From positions 620,001 to 684,000 of the forward strand of contig OZ237756.1 of assembly GCA_965178125.1 (NCBI GenBank): DNA of 64,000 bases, written 5' to 3'. Position 1 is the stretch's first letter. Every line of letters starts with the position of its first letter. The stretch is from Bilabrum cf. latius (Eukaryota). The notes under the pieces are model-generated. The model did no database searches, was not told the origin of the DNA, and saw nothing but the letters and a program-made list of their open reading frames with translations. Of the stretch, positions 242 through 47,281 are shown in pieces. Both the position numbers and the translations under genes were made by a program.

Positions 242-3040
242 TTAATTTTGTTGTTCTAGTGGATCATTATCCTCATCAACAAATAAAGCGGGGTCTAAGT
301 CAACCTCTATCTCTTCATCGGGTAATTGAACCTCTTCATCATCAACAAATATATCTACTTCACGAGTCTTTTTCTTGTTAGACCAGATATATTCCATCTC
401 ATCGATAATATCCTAGTTAAATTCTACATCGTAATTAATTTTCTTTTTCTTACAAGTCATAAATATGTCTTTCCCAAACATTGATTTATATACTTTAAGT
501 ATTTCGTAATAAAGACCTTTATCAGTGGATAAGTCAACTTTACTTCTTCTTTGGCAGTCATACACTGTCCTATATTCATCTGTTAAGTCTTGGTCTAATA
601 CTTTCTTTTTGATATTATAATCAAGATTAGTTCTTTTAAGACCTAAAGTATCAATCATCTTATTAAGTAAGACTAATTTTCTAGAACTAGACTTAGCATT
701 GATAATATCAAACTCGCCTTTATTAATTGCTTTCACAAGTAAGTGTTTATCATCTTGTCTAAAGAATTTATTGAAATTAAATAAATTAGATAACTTACCT
801 TTATTAATAAAGTACTCTTTGTATTTGTCAATATCACCTTCATCTAAGTCTAAATATTTATTAATCTTCTTGACATTAAGACAATTAATATCAAAATTTT
901 CAAGTTGTTTTTCTTTAATGGTATCTTTGATTTCTTTATCCTTACATCTGGTGATCTTAACAGATAAATCATAAGACACGTCATAACCGGTATCAATTAA
1001 CTACTTGATCATATGTAATTTAGGGTTTGTCTTATAACAATCTACCTTGTAAAGATAATTACGATATAGTTTCTTGAATATGATTTTAACTTTGCTCATT
1101 TCTTCTTCTACTTTGTCTTCTACTTCTACCTCGTTGAAGTCGGGATATGTATCACTGACAAATTTAACTAATTCTTCGTAGTCTTTTAAAGAGGTAGCCA
1201 TAAAAGATTTAACTTGTGAAAGACTTTCATATGTGCTAGATCGTCCTTTCTAGTAATCAAAAAATATAGTGATATGTGATGGGTTTCTACATCTGTTAAG
1301 CTATTGAACCATTTGGGGAGGTGTGATAGTATGACCTTTGAAATAACCAAAGACTGGTCTAGTCATAGTGCTATCTATCCCGTAAATGACTTTAGGTGAG
1401 AAGATAATGATATCAAACATATCCATATCATAGTCTTTGTCTTCGCTTTCTGCTGTAAGTATTAAGATTTTATTTAATTTCTTATCTTTCTCGTTATCTA
1501 TAATTTTAAGACTAATTAACTCATTGATTATATCAGCTTTTGTCTTACTATCACTAGCAAGCATAAATTTCTTGTGTTTCATTAACTCATCTCTAAAAGT
1601 CTGTTCGTCATTAACAAATACAGTTTTGGTGCCCTTGAACCTGTTTCTGTCATTCCTAATATATTGATAATCTAATTTTAATAATTCTAAGAAATATAGA
1701 GCATCTTGAGATAAGTCAGCATCTGCTACTATGAACTACTTACAAGTGGTAAGAGCACGAATAAGAGTAATGAAACTCATTGGTCGCCTACCATATAAAG
1801 TCGTAGAACTTAAACAGTGTTCTAAGATACTATTAAACTCATCTAAAAAGACAATATAATCCTTAAAGTTATAATTGCTAAGACTAACAATACTTTCAGG
1901 AGTAATAACAATACTATCACCCTATTTGTATTTATGGTCTTGATAGAATTTAGTTGATTTTGGAAGACTACGCATCTATTGCTTACCTAATAAAATACGA
2001 CTAACAACTGATAAAAAGCTGTCATCTACTCTATTAAATAAATCATTAGCAGCAGTTGTCTTTCCAGAACCAGCCCCCGACTTAACGGCATAGTTGATAC
2101 CTTTCTTAAAGAATTTAATATAACGACCTTTGTCGTCAGCAGTCAAATATCTACGGTCAATCTTCTAATTGACTTTCTTGACTACTTTATTCTTGAATAT
2201 CTTGTATCGATAATATAGGCTAAGTCGTTTCTTTTCACTATCTAACTAATTAAAGAACCATTCAACACATTGAAAAGTGGAATTTTCTAATAATCGAGTA
2301 AAAATTATCTTGTTCTTAGTCGACTAATAGCTTTCTACGTCTTGTTTGCTCCATTCATCAAATATATCATATACCTTATTACCATCTACTGGATTTAAGT
2401 ATTTAGCGATATAACTTGTAGCTCTACAAACTAGATGCCAGTTATATGAATTAGAATAATACTCTTTACCTAATTGATATAAGTATTGTTTGTATTCTTC
2501 GGGTTTAATCATATAACGGTAGTCTTCAGCTGTAAGTTGTGGTGAATAGATATTTTGTAGTATGAACATCTTGACGTCAGTTGGTATTCTTTTCACGGAT
2601 GTCTTTTGTATTAGTTCGTATTTCTTACCGTTGATAGAGCTAGGAGGACACATGATAAAGCTATCATTTGTGATCACATCTATATGTTCTTTTCTATTTA
2701 CTGACCTCTTACTAAACTCTTCTTCATACTTAAAATACAAATGATATCCATTGGGAGACTTGACAGTGTAAGTATTCATCTCTTGAATAAACTTATCAAC
2801 ACTACCATATTCCGCAATAAACTTACCATTTTGAAATTCAGTTTTATTTTTCTCTTTTTCACAATCTAAGTCAAGGACAAAGAAACCTGCACGTCTTCCA
2901 GTTAGTAATCCAACATTAAGATTTGACTTTCTGGTGATAAGTTTAGTAGATTCCAAATTCTACCAAGACTTAATAAGTGGTTGTTTAGAGTTGTGAGCTA
3001 TTGAGAAATAAACAGGGTTAGATATGTGTTCGGTCGTCAT
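242..3040 (-). CDS. Prim-Pol primase fused to SF2 (UL9/origin-binding-like) helicase, 932 aa (TAG=Gln)
   Basis: ORF pieces 2324-2956, 1301-1582, 1001-1201 and 413-979 share one frame, separated only by TAG; motifs NVGLLTG..FVLDLD, GYHLYF, Walker A VKSGAGSGKTT, Walker B VFLDEF, Q-LNRCR; ends TAA. Confidence 0.88.
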
Positions 3041-5983: not shown

Positions 5984-7787
5984 TCACAGTTCCTCGGCCA
6001 CAACGACATCCTGCTCGCCCACCGAAGCACTTGCTCCGTCCCCGTCGAGTCCTTCGCTTGTCACCGGCGACCCCAATTCCCCAAGAGGATTGTCCTGCGG
6101 ATCTAGCATGCCCCTAGCGAACTTTCGGGCGAAAACTAGAAGCAGAAGGCAGATGAGCACATACATGCCCACAGTAAGCACCTGCTCGGTCACTGAAAGG
6201 AACCTGAGGCTCGAGCGCGAACGTTCGGCAGCATCCGCCTCCGCCGCGGCGATTCTAGCGGCAGCTGTGGCTTCTTCGGTTCTTCGCCTGTGCCGGCTGC
6301 TGCCGCTTCCCTTCTTGCCCTTTCTATCCCTCCCCCTCGATCTCCGTGATGGGTCGCGCTTGCTGGACTTTGTCTTGGTCGGCGACTTCCGGATTCCGCT
6401 GCCGGCCTCTTCCCAGGCCTACCTCTCCTTGCTGTGCCTCGTATGCTTGGTTTTACTCTTACTCTTACTGTTCCCGCTCTTTGAACTAGGTTTGGGTCTG
6501 GATCTGGTCTTGGTTCCGCTTCGCCCGGTGCTGGGCGCCCTCCCGCCATCGTCCTCGCCCTCGCCCTCGTCCGATTCACCATCATCATCCTGCTGCTGCT
6601 GCCGCCCCCCTGCAGATGCTCGTGAACCAGAAGCCGCGCCCACCAGCCCGCCCAATGCTCCGATCCCATCGCCGGTCGCGCTAGCAGCCCCAGCTCTGGA
6701 GCCGTTGGTGTGACGAGTATCAAGGCCCGAGGCACCATCGCTAGAGCGGCCCGTGCCTTCCTTCTCGCTTGCACTCGTCACACCGGAGCGCGCACTGGGC
6801 AGTCGCGGCGATGCAGTCGCACTACCACTCGTACCGGTGCCTGCTTTGCTCTTCGGTGCATTAGATGACGAGTGCGAGGCCGAGGCCGAGGCCGAGGCTG
6901 TGGCTGTGGCTGAGTGCTCGGGTGCCTTTCCGTCGCTAGAGTCTGCCCTCGGGGCCGCTGCTGATGCCCTGCTGCCTGATATGGACTCGGAATTGGATTT
7001 TGATGCAATACTGTCTCCTTTCGATCGGCCCTCATGCTCTTTGGCCTTGCCCTGATCCTTGCCCTCCTCCTTGGGCATGGGCAGCACAAGCTCCGAAACT
7101 GTGCCGCACTTGCTGCACTTCCACTCCGTGCTCTTTGTAGCGAGCTCTTTCCGAATATGTTCGGGGGCCTCCACGGCGCCCACGGCTCCCTTGCCGCTCT
7201 CCTGGAAAAAGGCGCTGATGGCCAAGAGCATGCTGCTGATGCGCCAGCCCATGTCCCAGGACTCGGGGTGGTAATTCGTGATGTTCAAGCAAATCTTCTT
7301 GCCCACCTCAAATCGGCCGTTCGGGGTGAGGAAGATGAAGTCGGGCGGCTTGTGCGGGAAGTCGAGAGGCAGACGGAGCTCGCCGTGGTACGTGCCTCCT
7401 TCGAACGGGCTGTCGCCGGGACCTCGCACCGTAAAATGCCACCGAAACAGATCACCCTGCGATCAAAGTTCAAACACTAAAGCGTGCAATCGATTGGTGG
7501 TGCGCAGGCACGGCTTTCGTTATTCAGTGTGCTTGTTTTGCGGCAACAGCTCACGTCTAGGGGAGCAGCGTGGTAGTGCGGAGAGGGGTTTCGTCGCATG
7601 AGCCTAGCTTCCTGCAAGTAAGGGAGTGTGTGTGTGTTGGGGTATAGCTTGCGAGCTAAGGTTTGCAACAAGGCCACGTTGCAAGCCGGCGACATGGCTC
7701 CACACGAACATCGGACGTCTCGAGAGAACTCACGGCCATTAGCCTGCGCATAGTCACACTTGACTTTACAGTCGCTGCAGACGCCAT
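5984..7787 (-). CDS. UBE2J1: ER-anchored ubiquitin-conjugating enzyme E2 J1/Ubc6; exons 7787-7734, 7611-7555, 7456-5984
   Basis: Spliced protein MRRLMAEARL..HAAPLDGDLFRWHFTVRGP..YHG..TPNGRF..KICL..YHPESW; two GT-AG introns; TAG at 6419-6421 read through restores the C-terminal TM anchor; ends TGA. Confidence 0.88.
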
Positions 7788-7949
7788 TACGTGCGCCTAT
7801 ATCTATCAGTATCAAGCTAGTGACGGCACGAGCACGAAATCCTTTCGCCAGGTGCAAGCGGAACCACTACGACGAAAATGCGCGGCGCCACTATTTTGAA
7901 TTATTGGTGCACGTTGGGATGGCATCTCGATCGTGTCGAATTTGCCGCG

Positions 7950-9577
7950 ATGGAAGGATCAATGGCAGACCACCCCCAAGACCCCGTATCGCCAATGCAC
8001 GGTTCGTCCTCAACTGTCCGTGGCGGGCACATCCAGCTTGTGCTTGGGCCCATGTTTAGCGGCAAGTCCAGCGAACTCATGCGCCGGTGCCGCAGGCATC
8101 TGCACGCAAGTAAGGCCGTCCTGCTGATCAAATTTGCTGGCGATACTCGCTACTCGAACGATAAGATGAGTTCCCATGACAAGGTGAGGTGTGGTATGCG
8201 ATTGCATAGCTTAGAGCCTGTGTTGGCGTGGCTTTCGTGCTTGCGTTTGGATGTGCAACTGCTGCAAAGCTGACTTGATGCCGGCGCGCAAGCTTCGTTC
8301 GGATGCCTTGTATCCCAATTCAGATACGTGTTACTACAATACCAAACCATACTTTGCCGGTGCAGGTACAAATCGCGGCGGTATCGGCGCGGCAGCTGTC
8401 CGAGGTGAGTGAGCACGCCATCGACCGAGCCGAGGTCATCGGCATCGACGAGGGGCAGTTCTTCCCGGACGTCGCAGAGGCCGCCGAGCGCTGGGCGCAA
8501 GCGGGCAAAACCGTCATCATCGCGGGACTCGACGGCGATTTCCGCCGGCAGCGGTTCGGCGGCCTGGTGGACTTGGTGCCCCAGGCCGAGAGCGTGGTCA
8601 AGCTGAGCGCCATCTGCAAGGCCTGCGGGTCCGACGCGGCCTTCACGATGAGGCTGACGAGCGATGAGGCGGTCGAGCTGATCGGGGGGGCCGAGATGTA
8701 CGTGCCCGTCTGCAGGGGGTGCCACGGGGACGCAGACAGGGTCAGGAGAGCCGTGTCCATGGGGGACCGCAGGGGGATCGAGCTCGCCAAGGAGCTTGAG
8801 CTGGCGGCGGGTGCACTGCACTGCGGCGGGGGTGCTGGCCCTGCGGCGGTGCTGGGGGTGGGATGTCCCGGTGCCGGCGATGAGGAGTGTGACGAGTGTG
8901 AGGAGGGGGGGGAGAACAGCACCAGTCCAGTGGAAGGGGGGACGGGGGCCGGGAGCGGTGCCACCGTGGGGGGATCCGTCTCGCGCGGCGCCGGTTCCGC
9001 AGCGGAGGCGGCACTGTCGACGGCGGCCGGGGCGTTCGAGGACCGGCGGAACGGTTCCGCAGCGGAACAGGCGGCGCCGCGCACTCCGGCTCCTCCGACG
9101 CTGCCGCTCACGCCGGGTGTCGGCGCCCGGTCGGAGCACCGCCGGCGCCGCGCCGCGGACGGCATCCAATTGCGCGGCGCCGGTTCCGCAGACGGGAGCG
9201 AGGACGAGGATTTGCTGCAGGCGGAAGAAGAAGCCGCCGCCGCTGACGCTGCGGCAGCAGCCCAGGAGTCCTCCTCTGCTGCCCTTGCAGCTCTGCGCGG
9301 CAGCACCCTGTCCGGGGATCGAACCCCGCTGGCGGATATGCGGCAGGCAGCCGCCACTGCGACTGCAGACCCGTTGGGCTCCCGCCCCACAGGTGTGACG
9401 AGTGCGCGGGGGCCGCAGGCCGCCGCTGACGTGCGGCTTGCTATGGGCCTGCGGGGGCGTGTGGTTGCAACCGGGTCTCGCTCCAAGCGGGGAGGTGTCT
9501 CCCGCAGCAGCCGGGTGGCTACGGAAGGCGCGGACGCTTTCGTGTCCAAGGCGACGACCCGGATGAGGCTGCTGTGA
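7950..9577 (+). CDS. TK1: Type II thymidine kinase with long low-complexity C-terminal tail; intron 8184-8365
   Basis: [48 protein letters not shown]; start codon uncertain (7950/7962). Confidence 0.9.
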
Positions 9578-9854
9578 TGGGAGCAAGATGCGGGTGTGGG
9601 AGTTTGGGTGTGGGACTGTAGGGATGGGATGGGGGAGGTTTGCAATGAATATCGGTTACCTGTGTTCTTGTATCGATGGGCGTATCGCGTGGCAGATGCT
9701 ACGTGCCACGGTCTGCTCGCTCGCAAGCAACTGCTCGGGTTTGATGCCCCACCCACCGTGGCCAATGAATCGGAGCATTGCATGATCCATCCGTGTTGCT
9801 ACAAGGCTACTACTCGACCGCACATAATCGAGCTTGACTTAGTCCGGTCTCGAT

Positions 9855-12695
9855 ATGGAACTTCTGAATAAAGAGCCATTTGCCCCTGCTGCAAAGCGAA
9901 GCCTTGCGCAGCGGTACCATGCCGGCCGCCCGTTTTAGCACGCCGTCGTTGATGGACTGTTCCCAGAAAAAGTGCTGGCCAAGGCAGAGTAGGCCATCTC
10001 CACGTGCGACTTTATCAAGAAAAGGAATGATCTTTACGACTTCGAACAGACGGACGACCTAAAGAATGCCAAGAAGGGAATCCTTGCGAGGGTGCGGGAT
10101 GCTCTGTTTTCGCCGGCAGTCCGCTCGCTCGTGGAGGACGCAACTGGGATCAAAACGACAGACCAGGTTGATCTAAGCTGCGCGCGGTACGGCTAGGGCA
10201 GCCACTTGCTCTGCCATGACGACGACTTGGCAACGCGAGTAGTTGCCTTCATTCTGTACCTGGTCCCGAGCGACTGGTCCGAAGAGGACGGCGGCCACCT
10301 GGACCTCTTCGCATGCGACAAGCACTACCAACCAACGCAAGTCGCGAAGCGCATCCTGCCAAAGCGCGGATCGCTCGCCTTCTTCGGAGTGCAGACGAGG
10401 TCTCACCACCAGGTGGCAGAGGTGCTCGCAGACCACAAAAAGAGGGGCTACCGGGTATCGATCTCCGGATGGTTCCACGGAACTCCCCCGCGCAGGCCAG
10501 TGGTCAGGCCCGTGCCGGGTCCCGCATTCGTCCCTCTGCTTTGCGACCAGAACGACAGGCGAGGGACCGGCCCGGCAGCAGTACTCGGAGCCGAATACGC
10601 AGGCGCCGACGACGGCGACTCGGAATCGGACGGGGCGAGCGAAGATCTCGAGGTCTCCATCGGAGGCGGCTCGGACAGCAGCAGCAGCGGCGGCGAATAG
10701 GAAGAGGAGGAGGAGGAGGAAGAGCACCACAGAGGAGGCAGCTCGCCCAAGCGGCGGCGCCGCGATGGATCGGATCAAGCAGGTTCCGCAGGCATGGCGC
10801 AGGCCGCCGTCGCCGCCGCCGCCGCACGGCTTGCGACCGCCCCCATGCTAGGTTCCGTAACCGGCGCCGCGGTGCTCCAGCTGGCCGTCCGTCGGCTGAA
10901 CCACCCCCTGCTCCGCCGGTGGATCAGCCCCACGTACCTGCAGCCGGGCGTACTGGCGAGGTTGCAACCGGTGCTGGTGGAGAACGGCCACGTGGCACTT
11001 CCGGATTTCATCCGCCCGGACGTGTTCCGGTTTGCCAGGCGTGCTGCCGACGGGCAGCAGTGGACGCACGTGGGACCACCCTCTATGCGGCACTACAAGG
11101 TCGCTGCAGTGCCCTGCACCATGCCCGAGCATGTTCCGCAAGCCGGCGCCGCGCATGGTGCGCTCTCCGCCGCCACAGCCTCCTCCTCCTCTTCTTCCTC
11201 CTCCTCGTCATCATCACCCGGGGCATCTTCCGCCTCGGCTTCATCGGCGCGGGGCACAGCAGCAGCGTCTGGGACCCCCGACTCGGAATCGAAATCGGGC
11301 AGGTCGGTCAGGGGCGCCATCGTGGCCCTGGAATCGGACCCCGCCGCTGTGGCAGCCACTCTCCTCGCCACGGCCCACCTGGCCCGGTTGCAACCGGATG
11401 GAGCCAGCGCGGATGAGCTGCTCGAGGTGGCGTCCACCGGTGGAGTGCGCGTCCCGGCCGAACCGGGGTCGCCGCTGTCGCACTCGTCACACGGTTCTAC
11501 GAAGGCACCGGAGCCGGCCTCGATGGACGTGCCGAGGGGCAGCAGCACCACGCTGGCGCCGCGCATTTTGCCCGGGGGCGGTTCCGCACTGCCCGATCCG
11601 TTCCTGGGGCTACGCTGTTTTCTGGCGTCGAACGCCTTCGCCCAGTGGCTAGAGGTGGCGTGTTCCCTGTGGCCGGGGGCGGTGACCGGCAGCACGGTGG
11701 AGGCCCGGCGATTCGGCCCCGGTGACTATAGCATGGTGTGCGACCCATCGCTCAGGGGGAAACCGTCAAGAGTGTCGGTCACTGGGGAACAGGGTGGTGG
11801 TGAAAGTGGCGGGGATGAAGAGGGTGAGGAGGAGGAGGAGGTGGTGGATTGCAGCGGTGGGGTGATCGACGTGTGTCTGCCCCTCCAGGCGGACGACGGG
11901 CCGCTGGGTGCATCGCACGGTGGTGCACCCGCAGGAGAGGATGAGGAGGAGGACGATGATGAGGACGAGGACGATGATGAGGACGAGGACGATGATGAGG
12001 AGGAGGACGATGATGAGGACGATGATGAGGAGGAGGGGTCAGGCTCCATGGACAACGGAGGTTACGTGTCATATCTGACAAACAGCCGGGAGCTGTTGAG
12101 CGTGCCCCCAAGCGCCAACACGCTGTCCCTCGTGCTGCGGCCGGCCGACGCGGGCGTAGGTGTGACGAGTGAGGATGCTTCGAGGGGTCCGTCGAGCGGA
12201 GCTGGGGCCGGCAGGGGTAACCACGAGGATGAAGATGAAGATGAAGACAGGGGAGACGATGGGGAGGACGAGGAGGCGGTGCACTCGTTCGTGAAGTATG
12301 TGACGAGTGCGAGCGGTTGCGACAGGGTTGACGTCATGGCGCGGTTCGCGGTGGCGGGGCCGGGGGTTGGTGCCGGGGCTGAATCCGGGGATGAGGACGA
12401 AGACGAAAACGAAGACTATGCCGGTGCCGGTGCCGGTGCTGGGGGCGGTAGCGATGGCGATGACGAGGGTGACGAGTTGCCTGTGTATGGCGGTGGGTTA
12501 TTGTGCGATGTGCTGTCGTGCTCCATGCAGGGCGATGAGGGGGATGGCGATGACGATGAGGAAGAGGAGTGTGATGGTCAGGCGGACGGCGGGGACGGGG
12601 ACGAGGCAGGCAATGCCAGTGGACGTGGGTCCAGCGAGGGGGAGGTATAGTTGGCGGGGGTTGCCGGCAGGAAGAGGAAACGGACCGGCAGGTGA
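9855..12695 (+). CDS. OGFOD1: OGFOD1/Tpa1-type ribosomal prolyl hydroxylase with acidic insertions, 946 aa (5 internal TAG)
   Basis: PF-HAVVDGLF, NDLYDFEQTDDLK, LLCHDD, AFILYLVP..W..EDGGHLDLF, SHHQVAEV, RVSISGWFHG; TAG at 9936, 9990, 10194, 10698, 12648; ends RKRKRTGR-TGA. Confidence 0.88.
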
Positions 12696-12977
12696 TGTTT
12701 CTGTGTGTCGTTGGCTTCGAGTCGTGGATCGGATCAATGGTACCGTGTGACGAGCTGCAGATCGATCCCACTCAAATTCAGATTTGCCGGGCTGCATTCT
12801 CAAAGTCAACCAGCTGAATACGGCTGATATATCGACAATAGAACTGAAACGAGTCGGCTCAAATACTTGAAGATGTTAGTTTACTTCAAGTGGCCCCTAA
12901 TTTGACGCTAGTAGCCGTTCAACCCCGCCACAATCCTGGTGCTTGCCACGTTGCGATTTCTATCACCCCATCACAGG

Positions 12978-14750
12978 ATGTCGGCGGCAGTGGTGCTATT
13001 AGGCATAGCGTTGTGCTCGCAAGCGTTCGGATTTAATTATGTGCACCCGCCAGTTCCTATGTAGGACCCTGTCGCGTGCGGAGCACCGCCAGATGAGCAT
13101 TCGGATGCAACGGTGATCTGCGATCCCGACGGCCTCATGACTGGAACTGACAGGCAAACAGCCATCAAGGCCGCGAAAGCATTGTGGGAAGACGTGCAAA
13201 ACAGGTGTTCAGCAGAAGAACGAATTCCAAAGGAGCAGGGATGGACGTTTGGGAGCGTGCTCGGTTTCGGATCGGCGGGTAGCAGGCAGGAACCTACCCC
13301 AGGACACGAAATGGCGCTATACGTCATGGACAGGCTGCCTCCTGGATATTCGATCTCGCAACTTGCGCGTCAGGTGCATGACAGCTGGGGCCTGGGAGCT
13401 CCCAAGTGCGGGAACGGCGTGCTGATCGTGCTCGCTCGACTTGACAGGAAAGCTTACTGGTCCACCGGCGATGCGGCGGGGAAGGTGATGTCACAGAGCC
13501 GAATCGATGCAGCTTTGGAGAAAATGAGACCACTGCTGCGCGACAACGAGTTCAGCGCGGGCGCAGCGCTGGCAGCGTACGAGACAGCCGCAACGTTCGC
13601 TTGCGAGAGTGGTACGAAGGACGGATCGGCGCCAGATAGCATGAGCATCAACGAGCGCGAAGCAATGCAAAACGCGTGGCCTGCTTCACTAGGCCAGTAC
13701 AGCGAGCTGGCCTGCAAACGCCGATTGCCGCCAGTGGGCGTATCTTCCGGGGATGGCGACTGGATCGGCTTTGTGGTCTTTTTCGGAGTGTTCGCGCTGA
13801 TCGTGTGCTGCGTGGGCTGGGCCATCTACAGCGATCGCAAGAGACATATAGAGGAGCAGGCACAGGAAAGACAGGCCAGGGAGGTGCTCCGCAGACTGGA
13901 CGATGTGCTGGAGAATCCACCGCCGGGGCAAGCTCGTCCAGCCGGAGACAATGACGACGATGAAGATGCAACAGATGGCGCGGCGGACGTTCGCTTAGCA
14001 GCAGAGCAGGTGGCAGGCCCCCGTGGCGGTGTGTGTCCCGTGTGTCTGGAGGAGGGCCTGAAGGACGCCGAGGGCGAGCACGAGCCCATGGTGCTTCCGT
14101 GCGGGCACGTCTTCCACAAGGACTGCATCGGGGAGTGGTCCAGGGAACAACAGGAGCACGGCAGGGAGAAGAAGTGTCCCATCTGCAGGGCGTCGTATGA
14201 CGATTCGGCGGAGTCTGGGGACGAGGCCGCGGGGGAGGAGGAGGACGAAGATCCGGTGGGACGTCCTGGGATGGATGGCATGCGTAGGGGCAGGCGACAG
14301 GGAGGTCCGGGGGTGGGGCCCGGGGGAAGGCGTGGGGGCTCTGGTCGTGCGTGGCGCAGGTGGGGCCGTGGGTGGGGCGGGCGGGGTGGCGGGTCCAGCT
14401 ACGGGCGGGGTGGTGGGTATGGGTGGGGCGGCGGGTATCCGGTGTACGACGATGCATGGACCATGTTCGCTCTGAGTCGAGCTCAGCGAAGGTTCCATCG
14501 TGTGATCCCCGAGGAGAGGGTGGGGCAGTGGGCGGACAGGTGCAGGGAGGCGAGGACGAGGGGCGCGGGGGCTGCGGGTGCTGGGTCTGGTGGATTGCTG
14601 AGCGGTCAGTTCGCGTCGTTCCGTCAGGAGGTACAGGTGGAGCGGGCCCGTCGGGAGGCCGCCCGCCGGTCCTCGTCCTCGTCTAGGGGACACACGGGGG
14701 GCAGCTTCAGCGGTGGGAGGTCGTCTGGGGGGGGAGGGGGCGGGTGGTGA
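12978..14750 (+). CDS. Signal peptide + TPM domain + TM helix + RING-H2 protein, 590 aa
   Basis: Hydrophobic N-terminus recovered by reading TAG 13062; DPVACG..ICDPDG, WGLG..CGNGVLIVL (TPM); CPVCLEE..LPCGHVFHKDCIGEW..CPICR; Gly-rich GGGW end. Confidence 0.82.
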
Positions 14751-15139
14751 TGGCGGTGCCAAAATCTAGAATGGAAACCCCACACCAGATGAGGAGTGCC
14801 AGATAGTTTGGCTACTCGACATGACTACGGCTACGTATCGTTTGCGAACCGCTTGGTGGACAGAAATACAGGGCAATCCTGATGGATTGTAGCGTGTCAA
14901 TTCGGAATAAAACACATCAGGATTGTCCACGGCTGGAATGCCCAGTAGATCTAGCACACTGTATTCTGCAAATACACATTTCCGGAGCGATTCAAAAAAC
15001 AATATAGCATTTACCCTGAAGCCGTCAGTCAGAATCGAGTCCTGCCAGTGCGTCCGTTGCGAGCGATCTCCAACACTATAAATTGCCAGCGGTCATTCCC
15101 GCTCCTGACGTCCCTCCCAGCGAAATAGAGGCCTTCAAC

Positions 15140-18100
15140 ATGGCGAAGTCAGACACCATGCTGTTACAGCATCAGTGTTCGAAACTCTTGCTGGTCGAAT
15201 GCATCAAGCCCGCCGGAGGAAGAGCCTTGCTCGGATCCGGCGGATTCAGGGCTGTCTTTTGCGTGGCGATACCATCTAGAAGCACAGATGCCAAGGCCAG
15301 CGATGGCGCAATAGCGTTTGACACCATCGTTGGTAAGACTGTATTTAACTGGGGCCTCTCCGCATCCAAGCTTGAAGCCATCGACTCCCAGAAAGAGTTC
15401 GATGTGCTCACTCGCCTGCCCGAGCACCGCAACGTGGCTCGCGTCCTGTTTGAGTGCGTCCGCGAGCCTCCCCTATGGATGGTGGAGATGCTGCCTGACC
15501 CACGTTTGGTGTGCATTGACACTGACGGCGATGATGCCGATGCCGGAGAAGGAGTGCCGTCCGATGGCGCCACCCCCCTGCGGCCCCGCAAGGCCCAGAT
15601 GGTGGGCATGGAGCTGCTGCAGAGGCGCATGTGCGACCATCTGGAAATCGTGGAAGCAGATGAGCCGGGGTCCATGCCTGATGATGTGCTTGTGCAGCTG
15701 TCCAGAGACATCGCGGATGGCGTCCATCACCTGCTGCAGCACGGGGTGGTGCACCGTGACCTGAAGCTGGACAACGTGATGTGGGACTCGAAGGGGGGTC
15801 CGGAGGGGGTGGGTCGTGCGGTGCTGATCGACTTCGGGTGCTCGCTGTGCGTGCATACGGAGAAAAAAATATCACTGTTAGCTGATCCCGCTGCTGCCAC
15901 TGCTGCTGGTAGTTGTGTCAGCAGATCTTTCCCGTGTGTATCACGTATCGGTGGTTGAAGGATAACGGTGCCGGGCTGGGCGGCAATCAGGCCCATCTGG
16001 CTCCTGAGGTGCTGGACGGGTGGCACAGGGGGTCCAAACAAGGAGGTGAAGGCGAGGAGGTGCCATTCGGGAAGCAGGCGTCATGGGCGCTTGGTGTGCT
16101 GCTGCACGAGCTGGCCACGGGAGGGCGGCACCCGTTCGGGGACTGGTATCCTGGTGAGCTGCAGGACGGGAGCAAGCCTAGGTCTGGGGAGCTGGCAGCT
16201 GCATTGCATGCATGTGAGGCGCCGATGGCAGGTCAGGATATGCTATCTAAACGTCCTGGATGGTATGTTATGATCATCCGTGACCTGCTATGCGTTGATC
16301 CCGGGGACAGGATGGGAGTGCAGGAGGCCATGGATATGTTGCAATCTGGCGGAGACTCACTTAGAGGACCATCTCCAGATGCTGACATCAGCGCCCTGCT
16401 GCCTGCGTTGCTTGCCGGGGGCGAGGAGTGCGAATCAGCGGTGGTCAAGATCAGGGCGCTGGTGGATGGACTGCAACCAAAGGGGGACTGGGATGGGGTG
16501 TACCGAGTGCTTTGGCAGCTGGGGGTCGAGTCGGGACTCAACCAGGCCAATGATGCAGATACACGTGCCCGCCAGCTGCTCGAAGATGTCCGAACCGCCG
16601 TCTCGGATCACGTGCTATCAAACACAGGCGAGCTGGAGAGGATCGTGAAGTGCCTCGGCTTGGATAGGAAGATGGACCCCGAGATGGGAGCACTGTTGAT
16701 ATGGCGCGCATGTTTTAGTAACAAGAGAGCACGGCGGATCGCGTTTGCTGAAGCGGGCGCAATCGCAGGGGTGGTCGGCCTGCTTGGATCTAGAAAGGGT
16801 AGGGTGGCCGAGATTGCGGCGCGGGAGCTGTCGAGTATGGCTGTCGAATCCGAAGGCCTGAAGCAGGCCATAGTGGATGCAGGTGCGCTGCCCGCGCTGG
16901 TGGGCCTGCTTGGATCTAGCAAGGGCGAGGAGGCCGAGACGGCGGCTTGGGCACTGCTTAATATCGCAGCTGGATCATACGACCTGAGGCAGGCTATAGT
17001 AGATGCAGGTGCGCTGCCTGGGCTGGTTGGCTTGCTTGGATCCAGCAAGGGCGAGGAGGCCGAGAATGCTGCATGGGCGCTTCAAAACATTGCTAATGCG
17101 TCCAATAGCCTGAAGCGGGCTGTACTGGATGCAGGTGCGCTGCCCGGGCTTGTGGGCCTGCTTGGATCTAGCAAGGGCTTGGAGGCCGAGATTGCGGCAT
17201 GTGCGCTTCTTAATATCGCAGCAGGATCGGAGGGTATGAGGCAGGCCGTGGTGGATGCAGGTGCGCTGCCCGCGCTGGTGGGCCTGCTTGGATCTAGCAA
17301 GGGCGAGGAGGCCAAGACGGCGGCTTGGGCACTGCTTAATATCGCAGCTGGATCGGAGGGCCTGAAGCAGGCTATAGTGGATGCAGGTGCGCTGCCTGGG
17401 CTGGTGGGCCTGCTTGGATCCAGCAAGGGTTTGGAGGCCGAGCGAGCGGCATGGGCACTGCTTAATATCGCAGCTGGATCATACGACCTGAGGCAGACTG
17501 TAGTGGATGCAGGTGCGCTGCCCGGGCTGGTAGTGTTGCTTGGATCTAGCAAGGGTTTGGAGGCCGAGAAAGCTGCATGGGCGCTTCAAAACATTGCTAA
17601 TGCGTCCAATAGCCTGAAGCAGGCTGTAGTGGATGCAGAAGCGCTGCCCGGGCTTGTGGACCTGCTTGAATCTAGCAAAGGCGAGGAGGCTGAGAATACG
17701 ACATGTGCACTTCTTAACATTGCAGCTGGATCGAAGGACATGAAGCAGGCCGTGGTGGATGCAGGTGCGCTGCCTGGGCTGGTGGTGTTGCTGGGATCGG
17801 GCAAAGGCGAGGAGGCTGAAAATGCGGCGAGGGCCATTTCGAATACTGCAGCTGGATCGAAGGACATGAAGCAGGCCGTGGTGGATGCAGGTGCGCTGCC
17901 TGGGCTGGTGGTGTTGCTAGGATCGGGCAAAGGCGAGGAGGCTGAAAATGCGGCGAGGGCCATTTCGAATACTGCAGCTGGATCGAAGGACATGAAGCAG
18001 GCCGTGGTGGATGCAGGTGCGCTGCCTGGACTGGTGGTGCTGCTGGGATCGGGCAAAGGCGAGGAGGCTGAAAATGCGGCGAGGGCCATTTCGAATACTG

Positions 18101-18363
18101 CAGCTGGATCGAAGGACATGAAGCAGGCCGTTGTGGATGCAGGTGCGTTGCCCGGACTGGTGGTGTTGCTGTGTTCAAGCAAAGGCAAGGAGGCTACAAC
18201 TGCGGTGGAAGTACTGCGTTGTATCTCTTGCGGATCGGAGGGCCTGAAGCAGGCTATAGTGGATGCAGGTGCGTTGGGCCCACTGAGGCAGCTGAGGGAC
18301 TCTATCACAGGACCAACTCGCACGAGGGTACGAGCGGCTCTGCTGGTTTTGGGCGAGGCGTGA
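15140..18363 (+). CDS. Ser/Thr protein kinase (PINK1-like motifs) fused to armadillo repeats; frame change at ~15850-15925 (probable intron 15851-15921/15924, or frameshift)
   Basis: GSGGFRAV, HRDLKLDN, DFG in one frame; GGNQAHLAPE, SWALGVLLHEL in the next; about twelve 42-aa ARM repeats. Confidence 0.75.
16740..18290 (+). repeat. 126-bp coding tandem repeat (ARM repeats)
   Basis: Recurrent AIVDAGALPGLVGLLGSSKGEEAE unit; last three copies nearly identical. Confidence 0.9.
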
Positions 18364-27457: not shown

Positions 27458-27697
27458 ATGGCAAAATCACAAAAGGAACTCGAGAATTACATCTTGGCGA
27501 CCAAAGAATGTCTTAAATCAGTCCCGTTTATTACAACACGAGAAGCATACGATATGGCCAAAAAGTACCTTGAATTTACAAAGACTATTATTTGGATTAA
27601 TTATGATGATGACGATGACCTGCTTGCTGACTTTGAGGAGGCTACAGATTTAAGTCAAATTGTAGTTGAATGGCACGAAAGTACCAAAACCAAATGA
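27458..27697 (+). CDS. Hypothetical viral protein, 79 aa
   Basis: ATG preceded by CGTACCTTAAG..TCTATAG motif; ends TGA. Confidence 0.6.
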   Translation: MAKSQKELENYILATKECLKSVPFITTREAYDMAKKYLEFTKTIIWINYDDDDDLLADFEEATDLSQIVVEWHESTKTK

Positions 27698-27762
27698 TTT
27701 TTTCCCAAGAATTATTTTCCCTACTTTACAAAAGTAAGGAGAATGATACAACTATATAGCAA

Positions 27763-28818
27763 ATGAGTAGCGCCTTTGAAAGAATATTACAATCCCTAAA
27801 CATTTATCCCAACAGTCGTATTGTAAATTTAATGAAACGACCAAAACGACCCAAAGGAGTAAATAGACCCCACGTAAATGTACCAGAACCTCACCAAGTG
27901 GTACAAATGGATTTATTATCATTACCCCACGACAAGAATTATAAATACGCATTAACCGCTATTGATTTACACACAAAGTAGGCCGATGCTGAACCGCTCA
28001 AAACCAAGCGTTAGAACGAAGTATTAAAGGCATCAAAAAAGATTTTCAATCGTGGAAATGTCCAGAAACCGCAGTACCGTTTGGAAATAGATAATGGAAA
28101 AGAATTCAATGCTTTACAAAGATATTTAGAAGAGACCGACGTATTTGTACGAAGAAATAAACCAGGTCGCCATCGTCAACAGGCATTAGTGGAAAACTTA
28201 AATAAAACGTTGGGAAAAGCCATATTTACCCTACAGAACGTAAATGAGTTAAATACAGGTAATGAAAGCGTAGAATGGGTGGATATGCTCCCAAACATCA
28301 TCGAAAACTATAATGAATATCAACTGGAAAAATATATGGAAGAACCACCTTTACCCCCAGAACACTTCGACTTTACGTAGTGCAAAGGAGACGCTTGTAA
28401 TGTATTGGAAGAAGGGACACGCGTAAGAATACCTTTAGAAGAACCCAGAAAGGCTACAAATTTACAGCAAAAATTATCCGGAAATTTTCGTGCTTCCGAT
28501 TTACGCTATAATCCAGAAATCAAAACGGTTACAAAAGTGTTATTAAGACCCGGACAACCACCCTTATATGTTGTGGATTAGGATGATTTAGTGGCTTATC
28601 CAAAAGAGGAATTACAGATTATCGACTTTGATAATGAGGACAATAATCGAGATGCTCAGACAATTTTTATCCCAAAAAAGATAAAATCCGAGAACGAAAC
28701 AGAATATCAAATAGAATGGAAAGATTTTCCAGAACCAGAACATTGGACGTGGGAACCAAAGAATAAAATCCAAGAAATTGCTCCTAATTTAATTTTGGAG
28801 TGGGATATAGAAAATTGA
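27763..28818 (+). CDS. Retroviral-type (rve) integrase with C-terminal chromodomain, 351 aa
   Basis: VQMDLL, EIDNGKEF, QALVENLNKTL (DDE); YQIEWKDFPE..WTWEP; internal TAG at 27979, 28012, 28378, 28579. Confidence 0.92.
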
Positions 28819-29062
28819 GATGCCCCGTATCGTACCTTAAGGATTATTTTCGTATTCTGATGCCAGAGTAAAAATTACCCAATCTCCGCCCCTCTCCTGA
28901 ACACAGAGAGGGTATGCGCGTCATCGCAAGCAATCCGTTGGCTTGGTCGCACCTTCCCGGTCGCAACCGCCATCGGAACCCAACGAGACGTTCACGCGCT
29001 CCCACTCTGGCATCAACACCGAACCCCATCCGGCGTTAGGATCATATAGTACAACAACAAAA

Positions 29063-30724
29063 ATGTCATTCACTCTGCCGACTAAAGCGTATTCGTCAAA
29101 AAGCCTTATGGACCTATGTAATGCCGGAAAACAAGAGGAATGTATTCAATACCTTAAACAATACTTCTACCGCACCCACGAGCAAGGTGGCGGGGTGTAT
29201 TTTCTAATAGCATCTGAATTAAATCGGAATAACATAAGTGATGACGAACCCCAGAAACCAGTCTGGTAGTTCCTTACGAATAAAAATATTACTGAAAATT
29301 ACCTGATTGGGGGACACTGTATATACGCGATTGTGGGCAACAAAAGAGTAAAGACTTGGTCAGCACGAGACTGGTTCTTAAATGAGAATACCGACGTATT
29401 TACGATTGTAAGAAAATTCAATTCACCTACCGTGGATTACGACAATCAAACAATTAACGTTATGGGTTCACCTATACTTACACGGGAAAACTGTGGAAAC
29501 ATAGAGGATTTATCCGAAGACGCAAAAGCAGGCGCGACTATGATTTATGAACATATCCAGAAGGTGTGGACTTCAGAAGACAAAGAATAGTGTGATTTTG
29601 TGATGAAATGGTTGGCTCACGTTATTGTGGGCGGAAAGAAGTTGGGTACAGCACTATATTTGAAATCTCCACAAGGAACTGGTAAATCGATGATTATTAC
29701 CTTCCTTATGAGAAAACTACTCGGATATACCCTTACACTATAGACGCTTACACACAAGATGCTTCAACCCGACGCCTTCAACTCAATTCTGGACGGGAAA
29801 CTATTAGTCAATTTTAATGAAATTCCAAAAGCCTCGCAAACTATTTGGGACGCCATGTAGGCAACGCTAAGAAATCTTATTACGGAAAAACACTTTTCAT
29901 GTAATGAGAAGTTTGTCAAATCCGAAAGTCGTCCCAATACATTCAATTTAATTATTGATACGAATGATAGTCCAATCAAAATCACCGAGGAAATCCGTAG
30001 ATATTGTGTTTTGGATGTGAATACATCTAAGAAAGGAGACAAAGAATACTTTACAACACTAAAACGTTTTACAGAAAATCCAGAAGTGGCTAAGGCATTT
30101 TATATGTTATTGGTTGAAATCTATGATACATCACCAGACTTTACAGGACAATTCGCACCAAAATCAAAGAATTTTTACAAAGGAATTCTTGATGGCGCAC
30201 ATCCGGTTTTAAAAATTCTAAAAGAAGAGTGGCTGGACGAAGGCAGAGATTTTAAAATGACAGTCTTGGAATTCCGCAATTATCTAAAGTAGGAACTGAA
30301 CGGTAGAGTGAAGAACCTTGGTACACCTATGATTAAAACACTATTGTCAGAGGTGGGTGTTCATTCAACGATGAACAAATAGAGAAAACAAGAATTTAAT
30401 GTGAAACACGCAGACTTACTAAAAGGCTTCCAATCTAAATTTTAGGCACTTCGTCATTCTGCTGAGATGGAAAAAGCAAAATCCGAGGTAGATGTTCTTC
30501 GAGAGTAGATAAGAGAACTACAGAAACAAGTCGCATAGCAGTAGGAAACGATTGAATAGTTGGAATTAGAAAAGGAGATTACACCGACGGAAAAAGTCCA
30601 TAAGAAAATCCAGAAACAGCTGAGTGTTGAGAATAGCATCGCTATTCAAAAATGGATAAAAGAGAACCCACCAAAGAACAAAAAAGGGAAACTTTCTAAA
30701 TTCCTCTGTAAAATTGAGAAGTGA
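29063..30724 (+). CDS. SF3/D5-like helicase, 553 aa
   Basis: WLAHVI..ALYLKSPQGTGKS (Walker A), LVNFNE, IIDTND, RRYCVLD; C-terminal coiled coil; only TAG interruptions, ends TGA. Confidence 0.87.
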
Positions 30725-30781
30725 GTGAGTTCATACCTTAAGAATAATTATCGTATTCTATAATATATTAGATACTATAGA

Positions 30782-32623
30782 ATGCCCGAAATCGATTTTA
30801 TGGAACCCCAAAGAACCAAATTGCGTCTTAATGGGAAACCAATATGGAGTATGCGATTTGAGAGCGAGGACCTTATCACCGTAAAAGATGTCTTGGAATT
30901 TATTCGTGATTACGACGATGGTGGTGAAAATCCGTTTGATGACTTTAAATTTAAGGTGAATATCAATTTTCAAGATACAGGTTGGCGAACAAGAAGCACT
31001 TGGATTACTACAGATGATTTAGAAAATCAAGATAGTTTATGGGCGGGTTACGAAGACGACGATGACGACGAATATAGAAAATTGAATTCTTTTGAACTAC
31101 TGCTTATTAGAAAGCCAGAACCAGAAGGCGGTGCTGACGAACATAACGATTGTTTATATAACGCTATAAAATAGGCTTTTCCTTTTTCAGTTGGTCGTAA
31201 GGTAAATGTAAAGAACGCAAAAGGCAAATGGAAAACTACTATTAAAAGATTGTCGAAGTCCGACCTCAAAGAACTCTTGAAAATTGGGCGTGATGACCCA
31301 ATCGATTACAGAAGAATACCAGAGATAGAAGACGAACTTGAATTACGCATTCATGTTGTAGGCGACTTTGAATACACATCTGGAAAAACTCATTTTGACC
31401 GTCTTCTAACTGTTTCATTAACAAATGGGCATTACAAGTATGTTCCCCCCATTAGTTAGAAAGAATTATTTACACCGCCGTCTAAAGAACCGTGTAGACT
31501 AATAACCCGCTTGTATCAATCCGAGAATTCTTATTTACTATTTGATGGAGACCGTGAATATCAATCAGAAGGCATTACATCGGTTTTTAAGGAGAATTTC
31601 ATCCTTGACGTTAAATCCAAGGAAGAACTACGAACAAAACACGAAGAACGGATGAAAAATGTAAGGGCTTTATCAAAGGAGACGGGTGGATATATGGATT
31701 TATCACGATTTATGTTTAGAACATCCCTATTTGTAAAGTCGTATTTCAGTAAGTTTTCCAAACTTTACCCTGCCGACCCGATTGACCAAGTTGAAGCACT
31801 ATGGATTTCTAAAGCCTCGGGTGGTGGATTGAATTGGGCAAACAAGAATACTACATTAAAAAACGCATACCAGTACGATATTAACTCATTTTATCCAAGT
31901 ATTATGAAGGGTACATTTACATTTCCGGTTAGAAGGGGTAAGTTCGTAAAATTTGAAGTACCTTCAAGTGGTTTCTATCCGTACGGCATTTTTAGGGTAC
32001 ATATTGAAAATATCAATTCTAAATTGGTACAAAAAAGAAAAAACAATTATTATACTCAATATGACATCAACCGAGCGATTGAGACGGGCGCTTAGGTGTC
32101 ACTTATTGAAGACGGAGAAGCCAACGCTTTACTTTACGATGAGACAACAAGGGTGAAGGCAAATGGACTTTTCAAAACGATGATTGAGCGATTGTACGGT
32201 TATAAAAAATAGGGATTGAAGTGTGCGAAAGAGATACTGAACAACATCTGGGGTTCTCTATGTTAGAAAAACACAATCACAAAAACACTCCGAGATGGTG
32301 ATTGTATGAATTTTAGACAATTAAAGAACGCGTATCCTAAAGCATCTGGACGACTTGTATCGGGTACACTCTATGACGAAGAGTACGATTACAAAACAGC
32401 CTACGCAAGAATAGGTCCCTTTCTGACTGGACTTGGACGAAGTAAATTGTCCAAAATGATTGAGCCATATCTTGAAAACATTCACTATGTCAATACGGAT
32501 GGTTTCATTAGTGAGAAAGAATTACCTCTAAAGTTGTCAACGAACCTTGGGGGTATGAAGTTGGAGCAATCAGGTGAATGTCAAATTATTCACAGTAAGA
32601 AGAAACTTTTTAGAAAAGATTGA
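30782..32623 (+). CDS. Protein-primed family B DNA polymerase with N-terminal TP-like and vOTU-like domains, 613 aa
   Basis: YDINSFYPS, AKEILNNIWG, YVNTDG; GGADEHNDCL and LTNGHY; five internal TAG. Confidence 0.9.
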
Positions 32624-32624
32624 A

Positions 32625-32897
32625 TTAAATAGTCTGTTTTTCCTTAAGCTTCTCAATTTCCTGTCGCAAACTATCAAGTTCATCCATTATGTTAATTTGT
32701 TCCCTTTTTGTGTCTTCCTCTTTTTTAAGCCAATCAAGGTGTTTTTTTGTTCTACAATGATGTGATTTATTGTACTTCTTATATACGCCACCACACGAGC
32801 ATTGTATCTACTCGCCAAGTTTTCCCTTATTTTTCCGGTAGTATTCACGGGCATACAGCTTATCCTGTTCTTTTCTTTCTGAATGACTGAGTGTCAT
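32625..32897 (-). CDS. C2H2-type Zn-finger protein, 90 aa
   Basis: YAREYYRKNK..IQCSCGGVYKKYNKSHHCRTKKH; one TAG; ends TAA. Confidence 0.75.
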
Positions 32898-32933
32898 TTT
32901 TGTATTCTATAGTATTATACTATAGAGTTAGAT

Positions 32934-34139: not shown

Positions 34140-34164
34140 TTAGTATAGGCTTGTATTAAAAAAC

Positions 34165-34782: not shown

Positions 34783-34837
34783 TGTTTTGATATACTATAT
34801 ACCAAGACAAATATTTATTGGTTTACCCTTTTCATAT

Positions 34838-36604: not shown

Positions 36605-36709
36605 TTTTGTTTTCCTTGTATATTATATACAACGAATAAAATTCTATCACTCAGTTCTTTAGAAAAGAACGCAAACTCGTTTCTTCATAAAAGTAATACA
36701 AAACTAATT

Positions 36710-37819: not shown

Positions 37820-37875
37820 TTTACTATAGAGGCTTATAATTATGGGGTGGGTTTGATTACTTTTCTAAAGTATAA

Positions 37876-38367: not shown

Positions 38368-38407
38368 TTTATAGTATATCCACAGAAATAATTTTTATCA
38401 GGTTGCG

Positions 38408-45587: not shown

Positions 45588-45645
45588 TACCTTTTTTATG
45601 TGTTTAAAATAACTTAAACATTATATATTTATATAATATATAGTG

Positions 45646-45948: not shown

Positions 45949-45990
45949 ATCTATCTATTTATTTATTTTTTTTATAAATAAAAAGATTTT

Positions 45991-47273: not shown

Positions 47274-47281
47274 CTATATAA

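Follow-up and report, generated by a model that had tools for sequence, protein, structure and literature searches.

In-frame TAG is probably read as glutamine in both the host genes and the endogenous virophages of a GC-rich genome

Introduction

Does UAG still end translation in the 64-kb window (the whole stretch of DNA analysed here, 64,000 nucleotides), where ordinary host genes contain in-frame TAG codons and are flanked by AT-rich regions? The survey text of PMC11687900 gives a handful of lineages with a UAG-only nuclear reassignment: Iotanema, Protocruzia, some phyllopharyngeans, a rhizarian (Leu) and Scotinosphaera (Ser). A sequence-only reading of the window had claimed that its host genes use TAG for Gln and keep TAA and TGA as stops. 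We find it highly likely that UAG is a sense codon, most probably for Gln, while UGA and UAA stay stops, in host genes and endogenous virophages alike. This matches a code of the NCBI table 15 type, as in Iotanema.

Results

TAG codons lie inside three host genes

In the UBC E2 gene (Table 1), we found a single in-frame TAG at 6419-6421, 145 codons 5' of its TGA, and a hydrophobic C-terminal tail anchor is encoded downstream of it. In the OGFOD1-like gene there are five in-frame TAGs (9936, 9990, 10194, 10698 and 12648). The third, at 10194, is within a PF13661 match that covers the whole profile (1-98 of 98, E 2.4e-30). Four TAGs precede the Ofd1_CTDD domain. Conservation extends past TAGs to the 'LLCHDD' block that binds Fe and to the Ofd1 domain at the C-terminus. 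In the TPM-RING gene, the single TAG (13062-13064) is flanked by a signal-peptide-like start and the TPM domain. The sequence-only reading had placed TAGs in these three genes, and we recovered all of them (5 + 1 + 1) with no in-frame TAA or TGA. The thymidine kinase gene (7878..9577) and the protein kinase/Armadillo ORFs are without in-frame TAG.

TGA terminates 6/6 host ORFs, as the earlier reading had stated for host genes, and TAA terminates 0/6. Across these six ORFs (3425 codons, within the ~12 kb of host coding DNA covered by the analysis), the in-frame counts are TAG 7, TAA 0 and TGA 0; reading these ORFs in the other two frames gives TGA 127, TAG 50 and TAA 21. The probability that 7/7 in-frame stops would be TAG by chance is ~ 0.25^7 = 6e-5. 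The host genes have a GC content of 59-70%, and TAG makes up 7/103 (7%) of their Gln-type codons.

Table 1. Host genes, introns and virophage genes in the 64-kb window.
Feature	Position (nt)	Strand	Matches and remarks
Virophage element 1, cut at window start: primase-helicase	242..3040	-	PF09250; 11 TAG; stop TAA
UBC E2 (UBE2J/Ubc6-like), last exon	5984..7456; ORF 5984-7429	-	PF00179 E 7.8e-9; stop TGA 5984-5986
UBC E2 intron	7456-7553 (or 7457-7554, cut shifted one base)	-	98 nt, GT..AG, upstream exon beyond; joint 7455>7554
Thymidine kinase, two ORF pieces	7878-8273, 8303-9577	+	PF00265 E 8e-15 and 1.4e-38; TGA end
OGFOD1/Tpa1-like 2OG oxygenase	9855-12695	+	PF13661 E 2.4e-30, PF10637 E 3.3e-20 (TAG=Q translation); stop TGA 12693-12695
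TPM-RING 5' UTR intron	12875..12976	+	102 nt, GT..AG; joint 12874>12977
TPM-domain/TM/RING-finger gene	12978-14750	+	PF04536 E 6e-13 and RING families; stop TGA
Protein kinase + Armadillo-repeat gene	15020..18363 (ORFs 15020-15958, 16225-18363)	+	PF00069, PF00514; both ORFs stop at TGA
Virophage element 2	27670..39427	.	Pfam matches with TAG=Q; ORFs open only if TAG is sense
Element 2 rve-chromo integrase	27670-28818	+	
Element 2 DUF5906 helicase	29063-30724	+	
Element 2 pPolB	30782-32623	+	
Element 2 ORF	32934-34139	-	
Element 2 ATPase-like	34165-34782	-	
Element 2 MCP	34838-36604	-	15 TAG
Element 2 penton	36710-37819	-	15 TAG
Element 2 ORF	38408-39427	-	
Virophage element(s) 3	41676..63383	.	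Pfam matches; homologues and Gln inference
Element 3 primase-helicase	42810-45587	+	20 TAG
Element 3 PolB-like	47468-48967	-	
Element 3 MCP	53110-54999	-	9 TAG
Element 3 penton	55071-56024	-	
Element 3 ORFs	56361-58923	-	
Element 3 ORF	59448-61526	+	
Element 3 ATPase-like	61572-62189	+	
Element 3 rve integrase	62226-63383	-	

The TAG codons are kept in contigs of other public runs

In contigs from runs X5, X6 and X7, which come from two further studies, all covered host TAGs are kept and no other letters appear. The X5 contig covers 9813-10670 and 10831-11164 of the OGFOD1-like region, and X5, X6 and X7 contigs span the UBC E2 last exon and TPM-RING from 12977. Across four runs from three studies, the contigs agree at every covered TAG site. 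The joints of the UBC E2 intron (7455>7554) and of the TPM-RING 5' UTR intron (12874>12977) are present in X5, X6 and X7 and absent in X1. Because the TAGs are retained in these contigs and the GT..AG splices are found only elsewhere, we conclude that they are neither errors nor introns. The splice joints suggest that the X5-X7 contigs derive from transcripts, so that UAG would be present in mature mRNA; the type assigned to these runs is itself a guess by the software ('RNA?', and 'probably DNA' for X5).

The host genes support a sense reading and do not fix the residue. When we aligned the OGFOD1-like protein with 13 homologues, there were zero gaps at the TAG positions, and the three testable TAG columns were variable (P/R/K; D/E/Q/N; D/E/P/Y/A). 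The remaining four host TAGs are in low-complexity or linker stretches. Thus, the part of the earlier claim that makes host TAG a sense codon is borne out by the three genes and the other-run contigs, while its Gln part draws no support from the host columns themselves.

The AT-rich flanks are virophages whose genes are open when TAG is sense

The AT-rich flanks of the host genes, a larger data set that the sequence-only reading had not drawn on, are endogenous virophages with a Sputnik-type MCP and penton. The MCPs, of the double jelly-roll type, match PF21915 (E 8e-25) and PF22031 (E 1.6e-27), and the pentons match PF21507 (E 3e-9 and 5e-7). A profile of alignment A3, which joins the element 2 MCP and three relatives (P0015-P0017), matches Sputnik V20 (PDB 3j26) with E 2.7e-48 and the mavirus MCP with E 2e-9. 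Two ORFs that are candidates for a packaging ATPase and a cysteine protease (56945-58045, 56361-56936) have no Pfam match at E 0.01.

Under the standard code, the AT-rich regions hold 10.2 kb in ORFs of at least 150 aa, the longest being 254 aa. With TAG as sense this becomes 36.7 kb with a longest ORF of 943 aa; with TAA or TGA as sense the longest ORF is 315 aa or 260 aa, respectively. The 24 virophage ORFs contain 166 in-frame TAGs, which make up 166/478 (35%) of their Gln codons, and end in TAA (13) or TGA (11). Of the stops claimed earlier, TGA is therefore seen in both gene sets and TAA (13/24) in virophage genes only. Virophage Pfam domains run across TAGs, and when TAG is read through, the genes are tightly packed without overlaps. 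Taking host and virophage genes together, 173/173 in-frame stops are TAG, with no TAA or TGA in 30 ORFs and no frameshifts required. ORF calling treated TAG as sense and would overlook any TAG terminators, which in part accounts for the lack of genes ending in TAG.

Six pairs of paralogues in the window share 23-36% identity, and their TAG partners are N (11), E (10), S (9), K (8), Q (7) and others; we dropped this comparison as a test of the residue, at identities too divergent to fix it.

Virophage homologues point to Gln

To assign the residue, we ran a Codetta-like test on 28 TAG columns in two virophage primase-helicases against 147 homologues. TAG was assigned to Q with +16.5 log-odds, the next residue being K at -14.6, and 46/46 control codons were assigned correctly. 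In some TAG columns Q is found in 144/144, 142/144 or 137/147 homologues, and the TAG columns of the element 1 primase-helicase include invariant Gln. The Q result was stable with homologues limited to ranks 51-149 or 101-149. Mean Q frequency was 0.18 in TAG columns and 0.16 in CAA columns, as compared to 0.01-0.04 in GAA, AAA, AAT and TAT columns. One database homologue, P0014, is translated with TAG=Q and others may be too, so Q is possibly inflated in close relatives but not in the deep invariant columns.

The MCP and primase-helicase protein ends agree with the ends of their homologues. A TAG two codons upstream of the MCP stop aligns within the homologues' C-termini, so even a TAG near the end of the gene is read as sense.

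In 5/5 related metagenomic virophage loci, the MCP gene has 3-6 in-frame TAGs and no TAA or TGA, and these relatives have long ORFs only when TAG is sense. Among related virophage MCPs, TAG swaps with CAA/CAG codons; at 23 MCP columns with TAG, the partner codons were Q in 11 distinct cases, E in 4 and N in 4. We found no relative among IMG/VR viral contigs scanned with the MCP or among GTDB genome contigs, whether scanned with OGFOD1 or the MCP alignment, and tblastn of the GenBank phage collection with the MCP gave no match. A tRNA scan was empty for both the window and the metagenomic loci L001-L005, and an Rfam search of the window gave no matches.

Discussion

Endogenous viral elements commonly look degraded, and many stop codons are described in them in Bellas et al. 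(2023; PMC10120064). If the window held decaying pseudogenes or degraded viral insertions, the TAGs would be random nonsense mutations, and host TAG columns that are not Gln-specific would fit this. However, it is already contradicted by the restriction of all 173 in-frame stops to TAG in 30 ORFs without frameshifts, by TAGs at invariant-Gln columns, by conserved catalytic motifs 3' of TAGs and by independent metagenomic relatives with the same TAG pattern, and we regard it as extremely unlikely. Just as hard to credit is that the TAGs arose as errors of sequencing or assembly, or that they belong to introns or edited positions absent from the mRNA. Although misassembly can create stops in endogenous viral elements, as PMC10120064 and PMC8547959 describe, four runs from three studies show no other letters at covered TAGs, the two real introns show as joints away from TAGs, and protein alignments pass the TAGs ungapped.

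Recoding might instead be limited to the viruses, with a suppressor tRNA from the virophage or its giant virus and a host that keeps the standard code. The higher TAG share of Gln codons in virophage than in host genes (35% vs 7%) is in line with this, and tRNAs including an ochre suppressor are described for some virophages in Paez-Espino (2019; PMC6905037). Yet in three ordinary host genes the conserved or anchoring parts are reached only if TAG is read through, and neither the three elements nor L001-L005 yielded a tRNA gene, which makes virus-only recoding very unlikely. There is a little more room for TAG being sense with another or a double meaning, either a host residue other than Gln or a codon that is stop or sense depending on context, as in Condylostoma and karyorelictids, since the host columns leave the residue unfixed and ORF calling with TAG as sense would miss TAG terminators. 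We nevertheless consider this improbable: in virophage genes Q is ahead of all other residues by >30 log-odds units, the TAG two codons before the MCP stop is read, and the genes pack tightly without overlaps when TAG is read through.

We therefore favour UAG as a Gln codon shared by host and virophages. Host ribosomes translate the virophage genes, and from this we infer that the host, too, reads TAG as Gln. In this explanation, a tRNA-Gln with anticodon CUA would decode UAG in the host, host eRF1 would be altered so that UAG is no longer recognised, and TAG would be a rare Gln codon in GC-rich host genes and a major one in AT-rich virophage genes.

The closest match in code is Iotanema spirale (Fornicata), where Panek et al. 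(2017; PMC5304391) describe a nuclear code with UAG as Gln and UAA and UGA as stops. There too, UAG alone is reassigned to Gln and both other stops are kept; however, UAA ends 104/119 genes there, while here TGA ends 6/6 host ORFs and the host genes are 59-70% GC. This different stop usage and GC make an organism other than Iotanema likely. McGowan et al. (2024; PMC11687900) describe a UAG that is split from UAA and codes for Gln in Protocruzia tuzeti and two lineages of phyllopharyngeans, but those are ciliates, to which nothing in the window appears to point. In Streblomastix strix, endogenous viral elements use the UAR = Gln code of their host, according to Bellas et al. (2023; PMC10120064). 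Those integrated Polinton/virophage-type elements likewise share a variant host code, but their code reads TAA as well as TAG as Gln and they fall in the metamonad MCP group, whereas here TAG alone is recoded and the MCPs are Sputnik-type; in further contrast, the window virophages have free-standing metagenomic relatives. Code-15 bacteriophages (crAss-like and others), as presented in PMC9523058, also have viral genes with TAG as Gln; their code is unlike that of their hosts and they often rely on phage tRNAs, whereas in the window host genes follow the code of the viral ones and the tRNA scan gave no viral tRNA.

The sequence-only reading had likened the genome to those of Cafeteria-type flagellates. 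The EMALEs of Cafeteria burkhardae resemble our elements: they too are AT-rich virophages that encode an rve integrase together with pPolB or a primase-helicase, and the flagellate genome that holds them is GC-rich. The window MCP profile A3, however, is far nearer to Sputnik V20 (E 2.7e-48) than to the mavirus MCP (E 2e-9). EMALE ORFs are mostly intact, and a variant code is not mentioned in the portion of Hackl et al. (2021; PMC8547959) that we drew on, so C. burkhardae is unlikely as host. Halocafeteria was rejected on its GC of 46.8%. The thymidine kinase is closest to a EukProt entry (58% identity), with Anaeramoeba and parabasalids (43-54%) and animals (48-57%) next; these matches are not informative on host taxonomy. 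In a search of the main texts of open-access papers, neither a virophage clade with TAG-only recoding nor a GC-rich host of this kind came up, and neither appears in the parts of PMC6905037, PMC9952930 and PMC11502894 that we drew on.

A rare code change is very probably common to a host and its integrated virophages. A further independent UAG-only case, GC-rich and ending its genes mostly in TGA, is relevant to how UAG can part from UAA. Gene calling with the standard code would shred these virophages and give a false look of degradation, although they are apparently intact. The giant-virus catalogue in PMC13524828 presents all confirmed giant-virus isolates as coming from standard-code hosts; a variant-code host rich in apparently intact virophages points to a tractable system for asking how viruses and their parasites follow a change in the host code. 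More tentatively, and leaning slightly against it at present, we raise the possibility that a lineage without a previously reported variant code independently reassigned UAG to Gln and that a whole virophage clade, integrated and in several metagenomes, is committed to this code with TAG as about one third of Gln codons, as would be its giant viruses by implication. If true, the code would act as a host-range barrier in a three-level system of host, giant virus and virophage, and the host lineage could be traced in the environment through TAG-recoded virophage contigs.

TAG is read as sense in the host genes

The window, examined together with public sequencing runs and database relatives, is a mosaic by GC content. 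A GC-rich block (about 60-65% GC) lies at roughly 6.0-26 kb, between AT-rich blocks at 1-5.9 kb and 26-64 kb, where GC is 28-41%. Five genes are found in the GC-rich block when TAG is taken as an amino acid, and the in-frame TAGs of the oxygenase, the E2 and the TPM-RING protein lie exactly where the sequence-only reading, which took TAG as Gln and TAA and TGA as stops, had placed them. In the 3425 host codons, we found 7 in-frame TAG and 0 TAA or TGA; the other two frames of the same ORFs contain 127 TGA, 50 TAG and 21 TAA. TGA is the stop in 6/6 host ORFs.

Features of the window and their positions
Positions	Strand	Feature	Details
5984-7429 + upstream exon	minus	UBC E2, C-terminal hydrophobic anchor	1 in-frame TAG: 6419
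7455>7554		joint in X5, X6, X7	98 nt skipped, GT..AG on minus strand
7878-9577		thymidine kinase	ORF 8303-9577 carries the C-terminal extension
9855-12695		OGFOD1/Tpa1-like oxygenase	5 in-frame TAG: 9936, 9990, 10194, 10698, 12648
12874>12977		joint in X5, X6, X7	102 nt skipped, GT..AG
12978-14750		TPM-domain/TM/RING (TPM-RING) protein	1 in-frame TAG: 13062
14201-14824, 18374-18874		duplicated stretch	
15020-18363		kinase-Armadillo protein	Armadillo region 16225-18363
19005-25095		satellite DNA	
19005-19375		satellite	71-nt unit x5.2
20571-24475		satellite	115-nt unit x34, 90% matches
24523-25095		satellite	39-nt unit x14.7
27670-37819		within virophage element 2	
34838-36604		virophage reading matched by P0014	
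39680-39819, 42461-42667, 50092-50294, 56138-56346		140-200-nt repeat	both orientations, 74-82% identity
51748-52554		ORF of virophage element 3	PF13532, E 7e-4

With TAG read as Gln, OGFOD1 gives a full PF13661 match (profile 1-98 of 98, E 2.4e-30) across its third TAG and an Ofd1 C-terminal domain (E 3.3e-20) downstream of four TAGs. The alignment with 13 homologues is gapless across the three N-terminal TAGs, and an invariant 'LLCHDD' block follows them. In these homologues the OGFOD1 TAG columns contain P/R/K, D/E/Q/N and D/E/P/Y/A; they do not single out one amino acid for TAG in the host.

Several other features of the GC-rich block were observed. Satellite DNA makes up about one third of it, and a duplicated stretch lies immediately 3' of the TPM-RING and Armadillo gene ends, its two copies having long strings in common in their ORF translations. 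The thymidine kinase is extended at its C-terminus by about 280 aa. Among hits of matching length, the best are long thymidine kinases of a EukProt entry, Anaeramoeba and parabasalids; the thymidine kinase hits point to no particular host lineage. At least 10 tandem repeats of near-identical sequence form the Armadillo region; several encode identical protein, pointing to recent expansion or to gene conversion.

Virophage genes identify the amino acid

The sequence-only reading was right about TAG as sense in host genes, yet it overlooked the virophage data of the AT-rich blocks, which are the decisive set. Under the standard code, these blocks have 18 ORFs of at least 150 aa (10.2 kb in total, longest 254 aa); with TAG alone as sense, there are 35 ORFs (36.7 kb, longest 943 aa), and the longest ORF is 315 aa with TAA as sense and 260 aa with TGA as sense. 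The 24 AT-rich ORFs that we listed are virophage genes, among them Sputnik-type major capsid proteins (MCPs; PF21915, E 8e-25; PF22031, E 1.6e-27), penton proteins (PF21507), rve-chromodomain integrases, a protein-primed PolB, a DUF5906 helicase and Prim-Pol primase-helicases. With TAG as sense, these genes are closely packed without overlaps. Their 9985 codons include 166 in-frame TAG, 261 CAA and 51 CAG, and they stop at TAA (13) or TGA (11).

To score the amino acid, we aligned both window copies of the primase-helicase with 149 homologues from a library of 1.84 billion proteins. The two closest were then omitted, leaving 147, and all amino acids were evaluated at those TAG columns, 28 in number, whose occupancy reached at least 60%. 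Gln scored +16.5 log-odds and the runner-up, Lys, –14.6; the same procedure correctly assigned 46/46 ordinary codons with at least 8 columns each. Gln still scored +8.2 with homologues ranked 51-149 only and +5.9 with those ranked 101-149 only. Mean Gln frequency was 0.18 at TAG columns and 0.16 at CAA columns, compared to 0.01-0.04 at GAA, AAA, AAT and TAT columns. The public 481-aa protein P0014, encoded on a 19.5-kb contig, matches the TAG = Gln reading of its window counterpart at 100% of the 480 residues searched. An automated gene caller had thus already applied this model to the public contig, and counting Gln in close database relatives carries a risk of circularity. The deep invariant Gln columns are free of this concern; single TAG columns have Gln in 144/144, 142/144, 137/147 and 80/147 homologues. 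On these alignments, the virophage genes settle TAG as Gln.

Beyond the code, element 2 has a Sputnik-like MCP alongside mavirus-like replication and integration genes (rve-chromodomain integrase, protein-primed PolB). A profile of its MCP with three relatives matches Sputnik V20 (3j26) at E 2.7e-48 and the mavirus MCP (6g43) at E 2e-9. One element 3 ORF has a weak match, under the Pfam cutoff, to an AlkB-like 2OG-Fe(II) oxygenase. In the virophage elements, copies of the 140-200-nt repeat occupy non-coding gaps and may be a common regulatory or terminal sequence.

Related virophages in metagenomes share the pattern

Scanning JGI metagenome contigs with the MCP alignment, we found five loci at 48-59% identity. 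At each of them, the MCP gene contains 3-6 TAG in frame and 0 TAA or TGA. Only with TAG as sense do long ORFs emerge; they stop at TAA or TGA, and GC is even at 44-48% without a GC-rich flank. We also compared the MCPs at the codon level, which is free of any translation assumption, counting distinct partner codons once per column. Across the 23 columns with TAG in at least one sequence, the partners were Gln (CAA/CAG) 11, Glu 4, Asn 4, Thr 3, Ser 3 and others 1-2 each. At one such column, four loci have TAT (Tyr) where the window has TAG.

Alternative explanations

Random decay would also leave stop codons in frame, and the mixed residues at the OGFOD1 columns allow it; if the host stops were random nonsense mutations, finding TAG at 7/7 would have p ~6e-5, and we consider decay improbable. 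An apparent TAG could also arise from sequencing or assembly errors, from introns or from editing. When contigs of four public runs were placed on 5900-15100, those of X1 crossed intergenic DNA and introns, like genomic DNA, and those of X5, X6 and X7, from two other studies, were gene-sized with two common joints not in X1. The type of X5-X7 is unrecorded (the automatic guess is 'RNA?', and for X5 'probably DNA'); the joints resemble spliced cDNA, and from them we infer transcript status. At the TAGs of E2 and TPM-RING and the N-terminal ones of OGFOD1, contigs of X5, X6 and X7 show 0 other letters, and none of these TAGs is lost at a joint. Thus, the TAGs are real and not spliced out, and they are unedited if these contigs are cDNA, which leaves this explanation little room.

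The host columns by themselves would allow TAG another meaning, or two. In the virophages, a TAG two codons upstream of the MCP stop aligns within the homologues' C-termini, indicating that TAG is read as sense even beside the 3' end; together with the Gln scores, this makes another meaning unlikely. A suppressor tRNA supplied by the virus has a parallel in the ochre-suppressor tRNA that Paez-Espino et al. reported in a virophage and read as a possible sign of recoding in hosts (PMC6905037). We found no tRNA genes in the 64-kb window or in the five loci, and we give viral supply a small probability.

A probable common code for host and virophages

Virophage proteins are translated by host ribosomes. 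The decoding of TAG must therefore come from the host, and its meaning in virophage genes would carry over to the host's TAG-containing genes. TAG makes up 7/103 of Gln-type codons in the GC-rich host genes as compared to 166/478 in the AT-rich virophage genes, a contrast consistent with truly synonymous codons under mutational bias. The interpretation of the sequence-only reading is supported, with Gln demonstrated in virophage genes and inferred for the host, and with TAA seen as a stop only in virophage genes. The mechanism would be a tRNA-Gln(CUA) together with an eRF1 lacking UAG recognition.

The code proposed here is that of NCBI table 15, described for Iotanema spirale (PMC5304391) and also for Protocruzia and two phyllopharyngean ciliate lineages (PMC11687900). 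In Iotanema, UAA ends 104/119 genes (PMC5304391); in contrast, the window host is GC-rich with TGA stops only, so it is likely another organism. C. burkhardae is also an unlikely host, since its EMALE ORFs are mostly intact and a variant code is unmentioned in the available text of PMC8547959; Halocafeteria differs in its GC of 46.8%. Endogenous viral elements of Streblomastix strix share their host's TAR = Gln code (PMC10120064), the one precedent we found for such elements sharing a host variant code. A giant-virus catalogue reports giant-virus MAGs that are better annotated under variant codes but traces every isolate to a host with the standard code (PMC13524828). The main texts of open-access papers that we searched describe neither a TAG-only virophage clade nor a GC-rich host with a UAG = Gln code.

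Taken together, the simplest reading is one nuclear code for host and virophages, with UAG = Gln and UGA and UAA as stops, and its interest is heightened by a co-adapted virophage clade that is found in the environment too.
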